DNA of 64,000 nucleotides, taken from assembly GCF_024502345.1 (NCBI RefSeq), contig NZ_JALDNN010000001.1; one strand, given 5' to 3'. Within the stretch, counting starts at the first letter, position 1. Each line of letters begins with the position of its first letter. The notes beneath the pieces are model-generated. The model searched no databases. It was not told the DNA's origin and worked only from the letters and a program-made list of their open reading frames with translations. Positions 41,983-46,296 of this stretch are shown here, piece by piece. A program made the translations under genes and the position numbers. Origin of the DNA: Escherichia coli. GTDB lineage: Bacteria; Pseudomonadota; Gammaproteobacteria; Enterobacterales; Enterobacteriaceae.

Positions 41983-43326
41983 TTAAATCACACCCTGCGC
42001 CAGCATCGCATCGGCAACCTTCACAAAACCGGCAATGTTCGCGCCCTGCACGTAGTTGGTTTGCTCACCTTCACCACCATGCTCAACACAGGCATGGTGG
42101 ATATCCAGCATGATGTGATGCAAACGTGCGTCAACTTTCTCGGCTTTCCAGCCCAGGCGCGCAGCGTTTTGCGCCATTTCAAGGCCTGACGTTGCTACAC
42201 CGCCAGCATTAGCCGCTTTACCCGGTGCAAACAGTACGCCTGCCTGCTGGAACAGTTCAGTCGCTTCGATGGTGGTCGGCATATTTGCCCCTTCGGCGAC
42301 GGCTTTAACGCCATTGGCGATAAGCTGATGCGCGGCGTCAACATCCAGTTCGTTCTGGGTAGCGCAAGGCAGGGCGATATCAACCGGTACAGACCACGGC
42401 TGTTGGCCTTCGAGATAGACCAGACCAAATTCTTTGGCGTAATCTGCCACTCGACCATCGCGGCTGGCTTTGATTTCGATAAGACGTGCCAGTTTCTCTT
42501 TCGTGAATCCGCTTTCATCAACTACAGTGCCGCTGGAGTCTGACGCAGTGATCACCCGAGCACCAAATTCCATCGCTTTTTCGATAGCGTACTGGGCGAC
42601 GTTGCCGGAGCCAGAAACGGAAACGCGCATCCCTTCAAAACCCATACCGTGGCGTTTTAGCATTGCTTCTGTGAAATAAACCAGACCGTAGCCGGTAGCT
42701 TCCGGGCGAATAAGACTGCCGCCAAATGAAAGGCCCTTACCGGTGAAGACGCAGGCGGTATTGTTGGAGAGCTTTTTCATCATCCCCGCCATAAAGCCGA
42801 CTTCACGACCACCAACCCCGATATCACCTGCCGGAACGTCGGTATCCGCGCCCAGGTGGCGATACAGTTCAGTCATCAGCGCCTGGCAAAAACGCATCAC
42901 TTCACCTTCGCTTTTTCCTTTTGGATCGAAATCGCTGCCGCCTTTACCACCGCCCATCGGCAGAGTAGTCAGGGCATTTTTGAAGGTTTGTTCGAAGCCG
43001 AGGAATTTAAGAATGGAGAGGTTAACTGACGGATGGAAACGCATACCGCCTTTGTACGGGCCGATGGCAGAGCTGAACTGCACACGCCATGCACGGTTGA
43101 CCTGTACCTGATTGCGATCATCAACCCATACCACGCGAAACTGGATCACGCGCTCCGGTTCAACCAGACGCTCCAGTAATGACATCTGGCGATATTTTGG
43201 ATTTTGTTCAAGAAAAGGCCAGAGTGTGGTCATTACTTCACGAACGGCTTGCGCGAACTCGGTTTGATTCGGGTCGCGCTTTTGGACATGGTTGAGGAAT
43301 GACTCCAGAGAATATGTCTGATCCAT
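41983..43326 (-). CDS. gdhA: NADP-specific glutamate dehydrogenase
   Basis: 447-aa ORF MDQTYSLESFLNHVQKRDP... Confidence 0.97.
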   Translation of the reverse strand: MDQTYSLESFLNHVQKRDPNQTEFAQAVREVMTTLWPFLEQNPKYRQMSLLERLVEPERVIQFRVVWVDDRNQVQVNRAWRVQFSSAIGPYKGGMRFHPSVNLSILKFLGFEQTFKNALTTLPMGGGKGGSDFDPKGKSEGEVMRFCQALMTELYRHLGADTDVPAGDIGVGGREVGFMAGMMKKLSNNTACVFTGKGLSFGGSLIRPEATGYGLVYFTEAMLKRHGMGFEGMRVSVSGSGNVAQYAIEKAMEFGARVITASDSSGTVVDESGFTKEKLARLIEIKASRDGRVADYAKEFGLVYLEGQQPWSVPVDIALPCATQNELDVDAAHQLIANGVKAVAEGANMPTTIEATELFQQAGVLFAPGKAANAGGVATSGLEMAQNAARLGWKAEKVDARLHHIMLDIHHACVEHGGEGEQTNYVQGANIAGFVKVADAMLAQGVI

Positions 43327-43561
43327 AGATATAAAACCCTTATATATTAATACGATTGTGCTTATGTTGTTTATGTGATGTGCTTTTGCAGTTTTCGACT
43401 ATACCATCAAGAATGTGACGGTAAGCAAGAAAAAAATGACCCAGGAAAGCAAATTAATAACGAGAGTAATCTCATAACCAAATGCGATAACTCAGACGCT
43501 AAAGTTTTGCCACCCGGCTACCGTTATCAGTAGCAGAGACAATAACGTTAAGGAGTTCCCT

Positions 43562-43834
43562 GTGAGTCGAGCATTGTTCGCCGTAGTATTAGCATTTCCA
43601 TTAATTGCACTGGCTAACCCGCATTATCGTCCGGACGTGGAGGTAAACGTACCGCCAGAAGTGTTCAGTTCAGGCGGGCAATCAGCGCAGCCCTGTACTC
43701 AGTGCTGCGTTTATCAGGATAAAAATTATTCTGAAGGGGCGGTAATTAAAGCCGAAGGAATACTGCTGCAATGCCAGCGGGATGACAAAACCCTTAGCAC
43801 TAATCCGCTGGTCTGGCGGCGCGTAAAGCCATAA
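43562..43834 (+). CDS. ynjH: DUF1496 secreted protein
   Basis: 90-aa ORF with signal peptide. Confidence 0.8.
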   Translation: MSRALFAVVLAFPLIALANPHYRPDVEVNVPPEVFSSGGQSAQPCTQCCVYQDKNYSEGAVIKAEGILLQCQRDDKTLSTNPLVWRRVKP

Positions 43835-44207
43835 ACGCCTCTAATAATGGAATGTCAGCAGGAGCCAGCGGATATTGCAGCGCCTCTTCAGGTGAGCACC
43901 AGACCAGCGCCTGATGTTCATGTGCCTGTAACGTCCCGTGGAAGTCGGGTACGTGCCAGGCATGAAGATGGATAATCCGCCCCGAAACTTCTCGCTGATG
44001 GCTGGCAACATACTCACCCACAGTTGCTTCGATGCCCAGTTCTTCGCGTAACTCACGCACCAGCGCCTGCCGCTGGCTTTCATCCAGCTCGACTTTACCA
44101 CCGGCAAACTCCCATAATCCCGCCTGATCGCTCTGGGCGGGGCGTTGCGCGAGTAAAATTTTGCCATCACGTTCAATGAGGGCGGCAACAACTTCAATCA
44201 TTTTCAT
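43800..44207 (-). CDS. nudG: Nudix CTP/8-oxo-dGTP pyrophosphohydrolase
   Basis: 135-aa ORF; Nudix box GGKVELDESQRQALVRELREELG. Confidence 0.9.
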   Translation of the reverse strand: MKMIEVVAALIERDGKILLAQRPAQSDQAGLWEFAGGKVELDESQRQALVRELREELGIEATVGEYVASHQREVSGRIIHLHAWHVPDFHGTLQAHEHQALVWCSPEEALQYPLAPADIPLLEAFMALRAARPAD

Positions 44208-44293
44208 AAATTACACACGGGCAGATAAGCGAAAAATGCCATAATATCCGCACTGTTGCTCAATCAGAAAGGCTTTATATTTAAGGAGTGCCT

Positions 44294-44914
44294 GTGCTAG
44301 ACCGCCATCTTCATCCCCGGATTAAACCGTTGTTGCATCAGTGCGTGCGGGTTCTTGATAAACCGGGCATTACGCCAGATGGTTTAACATTAGTGGGATT
44401 TGCCATCGGCGTGCTGGCTCTGCCGTTTCTGGCTCTGGGCTGGTATCTGGCGGCGCTAGTCGTCATTTTGTTGAATCGTCTGCTTGATGGTCTGGATGGC
44501 GCACTGGCGCGGCGCAGAGGGCTTACCGACGCGGGCGGATTTCTCGATATTTCTCTCGATTTTCTCTTTTACGCGCTGGTGCCGTTTGGTTTTATTCTTG
44601 CTGCACCGGAGCAAAATGCGCTGGCAGGCGGCTGGCTGCTGTTTGCGTTTATCGGTACGGGCAGCAGTTTTCTCGCTTTTGCTGCGCTGGCGGCGAAACA
44701 TCAGATTGATAATCCCGGTTATGCGCATAAATCGTTTTATTATCTGGGGGGATTAACCGAAGGCACAGAAACGATCTTACTGTTTGTGCTGGGATGTTTA
44801 TTCCCTGCATGGTTTGCGTGGTTTGCGTGGATCTTCGGTGCGTTGTGCTGGATGACGACCTTTACGCGGGTGTGGAGTGGGTATCTGACGCTGAAGTCGT
44901 TCCAGCGTCAGTAA
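44294..44914 (+). CDS. ynjF: CDP-alcohol phosphatidyltransferase family membrane protein
   Basis: 206 aa from second GTG (AAGGAG 5 nt upstream); DG(x)2AR motif in LDGLDGALARRRG. Confidence 0.85.
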   Translation: MLDRHLHPRIKPLLHQCVRVLDKPGITPDGLTLVGFAIGVLALPFLALGWYLAALVVILLNRLLDGLDGALARRRGLTDAGGFLDISLDFLFYALVPFGFILAAPEQNALAGGWLLFAFIGTGSSFLAFAALAAKHQIDNPGYAHKSFYYLGGLTEGTETILLFVLGCLFPAWFAWFAWIFGALCWMTTFTRVWSGYLTLKSFQRQ

Positions 44915-44922
44915 TTGCAATG

Positions 44923-46230
44923 TTATTTGCTGCTGTCCGGGCCGCGTTCACCGGTTGCTACCGGATTTTTGGGATCGCTGCTCCATTCGTACCAGCCGCC
45001 GTCGTAAACGGAGACGTTATTCCAGCCCATTGCTCGTGCGTACATAAAGGTTTCGGACGCGCGCCAGCCGGTGCCGCAGTAGAATGAAACTTGCTGATCT
45101 GGTTTGATATTCCATGCTTTCCACATAGCGGTAATATCATCGGCGCTACGCATGGTGCCATCGGGGTTATGGAAATCTTCCATATGCGTCGAGTCGCTAC
45201 CAGCGTGTCCCCAACGTGCTCCGGCTATTTCACCTTTTGGTTTAATATAACTGTAACCGCTGGTCGTACCGATAAATTCTGGCCACGAACGAATGCTCAC
45301 CAGCGATGCATCCTGGCGATGCAGCAGTCCACGGGCCTGTTCCATATCGAGCATCAACTGCGGTTGCGCCGGGATCTTCACGCCGAAATCCGGTTCCGCT
45401 TTCACTTTCGGTGGCGTTCCGCGCTCAACAGGCAGTCCCGCGTCGGACCAGGTTTGCCAGCCGCCATCCAGCAGGCGCACATCTTTCACGCCAGCATAAA
45501 GCATAATCTGCGCCACACGCGCTGCAGCATATACGTCACGCCCGTACAGAATGACCGTGGTGTCATGGCGAATGCCGTGTTTTGCCAGCATCGCTTTTAG
45601 TTGTTCATCAGAAACTTTGTTCCACAGCGGTTCGCTTTCCACTTCGTTGGTATCGATGTAGTCAGCGCCAGGAATATGGCTGATAAGGTAAAGCTTAGGA
45701 GCGCCCCAGGCCGCTTCAATGACTTTCCAGTCTCCGGCAGGTTTCGCCGTAACCTCTTTACCTTGTTGCAGGTCGTGCAGCCATTGCGGATAAACCAGCT
45801 GCTCAAAGTGCGGCAGTTTTTGTAGACGGGAAGGTTCGCTTAGCGCGTCACTCAGAATGGAGATATGCGTAAAACCTGCTTTTTGCAGTCGCGTTTTGAC
45901 GGCGTCGACATCTTTGCCATTACCGTATAGCGCCACCGGGGCATCGGCTTTCAGGTTATGTTGCTTGATCCACGCGTTTAGCTGTTCGGTGCTCATTTTG
46001 TCAAGCCAGCTAGCAGAGAGGTTTAAGGCGGCAGGTTCATGACCAGAAGGGCCATTTAAGGTTTGTGGCCAGCCGTTATAAAACGCGCTGGGGCGAGTAT
46101 CTATCGCTTTGCCATTTTGTTGTTGAAGCTGGTCAAGTGTAAGAGGCTTCGCCAGTTCAGCGGCCCACGAAGAAGCGCAAGCCAGCCCTAAAGCCATTGC
46201 CAGCGCGGTCATTTGAGAAACACGTTTCAT
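44923..46230 (-). CDS. ynjE: periplasmic thiosulfate sulfurtransferase with three rhodanese domains
   Basis: 435 aa from MKRVSQMTALAMALGLACASSWAAE (signal peptide); active-site loop CGTGWR. Confidence 0.88.
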   Translation of the reverse strand: MKRVSQMTALAMALGLACASSWAAELAKPLTLDQLQQQNGKAIDTRPSAFYNGWPQTLNGPSGHEPAALNLSASWLDKMSTEQLNAWIKQHNLKADAPVALYGNGKDVDAVKTRLQKAGFTHISILSDALSEPSRLQKLPHFEQLVYPQWLHDLQQGKEVTAKPAGDWKVIEAAWGAPKLYLISHIPGADYIDTNEVESEPLWNKVSDEQLKAMLAKHGIRHDTTVILYGRDVYAAARVAQIMLYAGVKDVRLLDGGWQTWSDAGLPVERGTPPKVKAEPDFGVKIPAQPQLMLDMEQARGLLHRQDASLVSIRSWPEFIGTTSGYSYIKPKGEIAGARWGHAGSDSTHMEDFHNPDGTMRSADDITAMWKAWNIKPDQQVSFYCGTGWRASETFMYARAMGWNNVSVYDGGWYEWSSDPKNPVATGERGPDSSK

Positions 46231-46296
46231 CGAAAATCCCGACATTGTAGTTTTGAGTGCGCCATTCTGAACTGACGCATTGGGAAAAACTTTGCG

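Follow-up and report, generated by a model that had tools for sequence, protein, structure and literature searches.

The convergent genes ynjH and nudG of Escherichia coli share the last 35 bp of their coding sequences on opposite strands, and we put at roughly 75 % the probability that this arrangement is a conserved, spacer-less, dual-coding junction in which the overlap of the two transcripts is an architectural by-product, with termination probably mediated by Rho or by polymerase collision inside the partner gene. The analysis was conducted on a window of 64,000 nt of E. coli DNA (the whole stretch analysed, to which coordinates refer unless another sequence is named), and the features discussed are collected in Table 1. 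Although the original prediction gave the overlap as new, it is already annotated and published. In GWIPS-viz 2018 (PMC5753223), the ‘overlapping genes nudG and ynjH’ serve as a figure example, with strand-specific Ribo-seq and mRNA-seq tracks for both genes (its Figure 1), and ExcludonFinder (NAR 2025, PMC12288877) places nudG–ynjH among 165 convergent excludons of strain MG1655, a pair being listed when found in at least 50 % of 58 MG1655 transcriptomes. What this study adds to that literature is a family-wide survey of the junction, the hand-over of selection from one reading frame to the other, the setting of the nudG stop codon by synonymous sites of ynjH, and a description of the junction as one without an intrinsic terminator, Rfam family or conserved hairpin.

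Table 1. Features of the ynjH–nudG junction and its surroundings (window coordinates)
Feature	Position	Strand	Description
Sigma-28 (FliA) promoter of ynjH	43500..43527	+	TAAAGTTT, 12-nt spacer, ACCGTTAT
ynjH CDS	43562..43834	+	90 aa, GTG start; ORF list, DUF1496, RefSeq annotation
nudG CDS	43800..44207	-	135 aa Nudix hydrolase; ORF list, NUDIX, PRK10546
Dual-coding overlap	43800..43834	both	35 bp, CTAATCCGCTGGTCTGGCGGCGCGTAAAGCCATAA; ynjH codons 80 (2 nt) to 90 plus stop, nudG codons 125 (2 nt) to 135 plus stop
ynjH-ruled segment	43800..43825		26 bp; YnjH T80–V88, nearly invariant; NudG 128–135 drifts
ynjH Val88 codon	43823..43825	+	GTA or GTG only
nudG-ruled segment	43826..43834		9 bp; NudG F125, M/I126 and residue 127 opposite ynjH K89, residue 90 and stop
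Candidate Rho loading region	43975..44135	+	C-rich, G-poor ynjH read-through RNA, antisense to nudG

Within the overlap the plus strand encodes (T)NPLVWRRVKP-stop of YnjH and the minus strand (F)MALRAARPAD-stop of NudG; set against the ORF list, the extent and strands of the shared 35-bp end given in the original prediction were exact. YnjH has a signal-peptide-like N-terminal segment and four Cys residues, its GTG start is preceded by a Shine–Dalgarno sequence (AAGGAG, 43551–43556), and the Pfam family DUF1496 matches residues 33–89 (E 1.7e-24) and so covers the C-terminus. NudG is, by its annotated activity, a CTP/5-hydroxy-CTP diphosphatase; the NUDIX match spans residues 4–125 and the NCBIfam equivalog PRK10546 spans residues 1–135 (E 2.3e-79). 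The locus, flanked by gdhA, ynjF and ynjE, lies in the window in reverse orientation relative to K-12, where the RefSeq annotation (nudG 1841490..1841897, plus strand; ynjH 1841863..1842135, minus strand) contains the identical 35-bp overlap; the window and K-12 sequences of the overlap do not differ, and the RefSeq annotation of strain FDAARGOS_943 likewise has a 35-bp ynjH/nudG overlap. A search of 5,426 complete E. coli genomes with a 121-bp sequence representing the junction gave matches in 5,415, and in 29 of 30 genomes among the matches listed both nudG and ynjH lie under the match. The two opposite-strand ORFs thus have 3' nucleotides in common, and both are real genes under purifying selection into the overlap, with the exception of NudG residues 129–135, which are unconserved. 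It had also been predicted that each mRNA 3' end is antisense to the partner, and this was borne out, each stop codon lying beyond that of the partner. As each stop codon is situated inside the partner gene, any mRNA carrying the full coding sequence includes 35 complementary nucleotides; the overlap is therefore obligatory, and transcripts that end before it cannot be functional mRNAs. A second tight convergent pair lies alongside, ynjF (44288..44914, plus strand) and ynjE (44923..46245, minus strand), with 8 bp between the stop codons, and ynjE–ynjF is also part of the MG1655 excludome (PMC12288877).

The history of the junction was examined by searching one genome per species with NudG as the query, which yielded 80 Enterobacterales loci in which both genes were extended to their stop codons. 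The two genes converge in 78 of these. The coding sequences overlap by 23–44 bp in every Enterobacteriaceae locus, most commonly by 35 or 41 bp, the genera concerned including Escherichia, Citrobacter, Salmonella, Kosakonia, Kluyvera, Buttiauxella, Enterobacter, Cedecea and Mangrovibacter, among others. The distance from the nudG start to the ynjH stop is fixed, and it is the position of the nudG stop that shifts. In most loci of Serratia, Yersinia and Erwinia the gene ends range from 30 bp apart to 12 bp overlapping; Serratia sp. H1w (100-bp gap) and Yersinia ruckeri (50-bp overlap) fall outside this range. As judged from these alignments, the spacer-less tail-to-tail junction is old and the Enterobacteriaceae have the deeper overlap as a derived condition, which would have arisen most simply through loss of approximately 25–30 bp holding the original nudG stop codon, outgroup comparison being the sole basis for an origin by deletion or stop loss.

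Several individual loci from this survey deserve mention. The spacer of approximately 100 bp between nudG and ynjH in Serratia sp. H1w (locus L068, 3447..3548) is the only long one found, and holds a G/C-rich palindrome, GGGAGAGGGG ... CCCCTCTCCC, resembling an inserted repeat element. The 50-bp overlap of Y. ruckeri (locus L082, 3401..3450) is independent, the NudG protein of this species having 149 aa with an unrelated C-terminal extension; this separate, longer overlap indicates that read-through of nudG into ynjH arose more than once. A contig labelled Chryseobacterium sp. 18061 (L037) has an Enterobacteriaceae-type nudG–ynjH junction and is probably mislabelled or contaminated, and the metagenome-assembled genome ‘Citrobacter sp. 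HRGM_Genome_0066’ has two copies (L004 and L010) with NudG identities of 96 % and 81 % and is probably a chimeric bin.

The manner in which two reading frames are accommodated in the same 35 bp was investigated by entropy and per-codon analysis of 52 loci whose alignment is free of gaps. Upstream of the ynjH stop codon, column entropy was 0.61, 0.37 and 1.51 at nudG codon positions 1, 2 and 3, respectively. Inside the overlap, mean entropy was 0.96 where nudG position 2 coincides with ynjH position 3, and only 0.16 in the nearly fixed columns where nudG position 3 coincides with ynjH position 2; the periodicity of entropy thus changes frame at the ynjH stop codon. In the few base pairs nearest the body of nudG it is NudG that is obeyed. 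The ynjH stop codon is TAA in 51 of the 52 loci and TGA in one; TAG, which is never used, would put Ser in place of the invariant NudG F125. Similarly, YnjH residue 90 varies widely (P/T/Q/S/A/E/L), yet the third base of its codon is A in 52/52 loci; this base pairs with the middle base of the codon for NudG M/I126. Over the remainder of the overlap YnjH is favoured: its residues T80, P82, L83, W85, R87 and V88 are invariant in the 52 loci and its NPLVWRRV motif is nearly so, while the opposing NudG residues vary at 129 (R/P/H/L), 130 (D/A/V/G), 132 (R/T/K/I), 133 (P/L/S/R/stop) and 134 (A/K/V/T/E/M).

The length of NudG is likewise decided in the ynjH frame. The nudG stop codon TAG sits opposite the third base of the ynjH Thr80 codon ACT, and with ACT at this position the overlap is 35 bp. 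When Thr80 is encoded by ACC, ACG or ACA, the nudG codon specifies W, S or L, its stop falls two codons further on, and the overlap is 41 bp. Synonymous sites of ynjH therefore set the position of the nudG stop. A further point of contact is the Val88 codon of ynjH, which is GTA in 38 loci, GTG in 14 and GTT or GTC in none (n=52), whereas all four Val codons are found at Val84 (Fisher p = 1e-17, uncorrected for phylogeny). With either of the absent codons, nudG codon 128 would become a stop, TAA or TGA, and under a neutral expectation, i.e. random synonymous recoding of YnjH, a stop falls at this codon in 48 % of draws. On this codon evidence, an opportunity for early termination at nudG codon 128 appears to have been avoided. 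The Val88 site is not frozen, given that both GTA and GTG occur within Citrobacter and within Enterobacter.

Structural information was considered for the part of NudG that is encoded in the overlap. The entry PDB 2RRK, solved from the recombinant full-length protein, is identical to NudG at 133 of 135 residues over residues 1–135. Other Nudix/MutT structures align with NudG only as far as residues ~120–127, and the last invariant residue of the NudG alignment is L122. The AF2 model of NudG has a mean pLDDT of 93.7, with the last helix ending at residue 130 and a mean pLDDT of 63 for residues 131–135. These data, some of them from a predicted model, agree with a NudG frame that would run on beyond the end of the Nudix fold. 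We also considered a NudG tail that is wholly dispensable, a notion that had to be tempered in that the reading frame stays open beyond codon 128 and that F125 and M/I126 constrain ynjH.

Our current working model is that a tail-to-tail junction without an intergenic spacer, itself old, has been inherited across the Enterobacteriaceae, and that in this family the nudG frame would extend past the Nudix fold and run on opposite the conserved C-terminal codons of ynjH. Constraint would then be divided, the 9 bp nearest the Nudix domain obeying nudG and the other 26 bp obeying ynjH. NudG F125 and M/I126 would fix both the choice of ynjH stop codon and the third base of its codon 90, and beyond them the NudG tail would be free to change through second-position substitutions and would end wherever the antisense of ynjH happens to spell a stop.

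Transcription through the junction was addressed by looking for signals that might end either transcript. A consensus scan for intrinsic terminators on both strands of 43300–44400 gave no sites where 0.9 were expected, a relaxed scan for hairpins followed by U-rich tracts, again on both strands, gave nothing convincing near the junction, and no Rfam family matched 43300–44400 at E <= 1. Single-sequence folds were no better than those of shuffled sequences (z -0.98 and -0.58), and in an alignment of 30 species RNAalifold gave consensus energies of only -1.0 and -3.0 kcal/mol for the two strands, with no compensatory pairs. A stem-loop at the gene ends that is kept in relatives, as in an intrinsic or bidirectional terminator, was thus not found. 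The curated Term-seq data of Adams et al. (2021; PMC7815308) contain no 3' end in K-12 1841400–1842399, and in the supplements to that study, including its Rho termination regions, no entry names nudG or ynjH; this may fit low expression in non-motile MG1655, diffuse 3' ends or both. The nearest curated 3' end corresponds to window position ~43246 on the minus strand (K-12 1842451, plus strand), 80 nt inside gdhA, and is classed by Adams et al. (2021) as ORF-internal.

An exact 11-nt inverted repeat, CGCTGGTCTGG / CCAGACCAGCG, is present at 43806–43816 and 43899–43909, and its arms pair as a long-range stem in the minimum free energy fold. It is accounted for by YnjH (NPLVW) and NudG (ALVW) encoding L-V-W with identical codons on opposite strands, and was rejected as a conserved structure, its complementarity declining from 11 to 5 of 12 positions across genera without compensation.

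With no intrinsic terminator on either strand, each transcript probably continues into the partner gene. Such read-through may proceed for hundreds of nucleotides, until it is halted by Rho or by collision with a polymerase travelling in the opposite direction. In 80-nt windows the C/G ratio of the read-through RNA is 1.8–2.4 from +141 to +300 past the ynjH stop and 1.3–1.6 past the nudG stop; the C-rich stretch on the ynjH side (the candidate region of Table 1) has a base composition compatible with Rho loading.

The promoter of ynjH is condition-specific. RegulonDB places the start site of ynjHp at 43534, with the promoter sequence as reproduced in the supplement to the FliA regulon study (PMC4183435), and the sense FliA motif is conserved in Escherichia, Citrobacter, Salmonella and Enterobacter loci. 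RNA-seq values for ynjH were 29 in the wild type and 2 in a fliA deletion, and deletion of ynjH had no motility phenotype (PMC4183435); FliA dependence is kept for the Salmonella homologue STM1300 (bioRxiv 2020.09.09.289983). Since this promoter is on the sense strand of ynjH, induction by FliA should drive polymerases antisense into nudG. Fitzgerald et al. (2014) print, in their Table 2, a ynjH motif, TAACGTTATTGTCTCTGCTACTGATAAC, that is at 43523..43550 on the minus strand, opposite ynjH and directed towards gdhA; K-12 and the closest Escherichia locus (L002 and L003) are the only ones in which it is intact, and the motif shared across genera is the sense TAAAGTTT-N12-ACCGTTAT.

The alternative that survives best, although we consider it unlikely, is a functional convergent excludon, in which FliA-driven read-through from ynjH lowers NudG by collision, by RNase III cleavage or by both. 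The presence of nudG–ynjH in the MG1655 excludome (PMC12288877), the FliA dependence of ynjH (29 vs 2) and its conservation in Salmonella, and the conservation in Enterobacteriaceae of the junction together with the sense FliA promoter are all congruent with this, and there is no terminator to shield nudG from ynjH read-through. RNase III needs a duplex of approximately 20 bp, a length that the 35 bp of the overlap exceeds. However, protein-coding constraints alone explain the sequence change observed in the overlap, and the complementarity is automatic and needs no additional selection. Furthermore, nudG is not mentioned in the text of the FliA regulon study (PMC4183435) or in those of its supplements that were covered, our literature search found no paper connecting nudG with fliA, and the excludon catalogue could not confirm convergent pairs by dsRNA capture, p19-based validation not being feasible for E. 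coli convergent excludons (PMC12288877). The original prediction held that the overlap allows mutual transcriptional interference or RNase III-sensitive duplexes, which we regard as a possibility only; if there is a regulatory effect, it would chiefly concern conditions in which ynjH is induced by sigma-28, approximately 15-fold.

A stronger form of this idea, namely that the conserved junction is a selected device through which sigma-28-driven ynjH acts as a cis antisense brake on nudG in motile cells, is in our estimation improbable. If true, it would link the flagellar programme to control of nucleotide pools or alarmones throughout the Enterobacteriaceae, the relevant NudG substrates being CTP and oxidized or modified pyrimidine nucleotides, with action on (p)ppGpp also reported. 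Selected regulatory coupling would also predict that the junction and the FliA promoter are kept throughout the family, so that the description of the transcript overlap as a by-product is a probable one only; overlapping genes are hard to split by rearrangement, and adjacency would be preserved by that alone.

Less credible again is a bidirectional terminator of the SEnd-seq type, in which a stem-loop positions head-on collisions in such a way that the two transcripts stop where the genes meet and overlap only minimally. Such terminators are reported as common between convergent E. coli genes and as needing a stem-loop in the nascent RNA (bioRxiv 2022.10.23.513370), and the excludon report gives overlapping TransTermHP-predicted terminators for 146 of 165 convergent excludons, a figure for the set as a whole (PMC12288877). 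Here, however, there is no intergenic space and no hairpin with a U-tract on either strand, the RNA folds no better than shuffled sequence and has no conserved structure in the 30 species, the 11-nt inverted repeat decays with divergence, and the Term-seq data (PMC7815308) have no 3' end at the junction. Finally, small ORFs of unknown function are often over-called, but an annotation artefact, i.e. a miscalled ORF end or a ynjH that is not a real gene, is refuted by unambiguous stop codons with none earlier in either frame, by a YnjH C-terminus that lies inside DUF1496 and is nearly invariant with third-position variation, by a solved structure spanning NudG residues 1–135, and by the strand-specific Ribo-seq and mRNA-seq tracks for both genes in the published figure (PMC5753223).

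The conserved dual-coding junction is important mostly for practical reasons, in that ynjH and nudG cannot be manipulated independently. Any ynjH deletion that removes the last 35 bp will alter NudG. The ynjH::thyA design (PMC4183435 supplement, primer JW4931), when read against the window, keeps only 43805..43834, its downstream homology arm ending ...CCAGCGG, so that nudG loses its stop codon together with two bases of codon 135 and NudG would read into the cassette. A 2026 screen has associated ynjH with reduced c-di-GMP (PMC13031359); as ynjH mutations can alter NudG, ynjH phenotypes such as this one may need a nudG control. Biologically, the pair is a small, clean example of overlapping frames that share constraint, with synonymous sites of one gene setting the sequence and length of its partner's tail. 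It is an ordinary finding, and the overlap opens no new question.

The junction may be compared with three known systems. It resembles bidirectional terminators (Ju et al., 2019, as cited in bioRxiv 2022.10.23.513370) in that polymerases will meet head-on if both genes are transcribed, but it differs from that description in that the stem-loop positioning the collision is absent or unconserved, and the two genes leave no intergenic region in which one could lie. With excludons it shares a listed transcript overlap and, in ynjH, a condition-specific FliA promoter (PMC12288877), but the ynjH–nudG overlap takes in coding sequence and not UTRs only, and whereas excludons are defined by mutually exclusive expression and RNase III processing, the likeness in this case is one of transcript overlap alone. 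The closest relatives are the convergent overlapping pairs, of which the E. coli reference genome has 75 that are adjacent (Huvet and Stumpf 2014, PMC4161906); convergent overlaps of coding sequence are not rare, and the ynjH–nudG overlap is one that is stably inherited across a bacterial family. As in those pairs (PMC4161906), opposite-strand 3' ends are shared and a gene reads into the antisense of its neighbour as far as a chance stop codon, so that nothing essential differs and ynjH–nudG is one of the ~75 in E. coli. What is particular to it is its conservation across the family, the fixed stop of ynjH and the floating stop of nudG, and the hand-over between frames within 35 bp.
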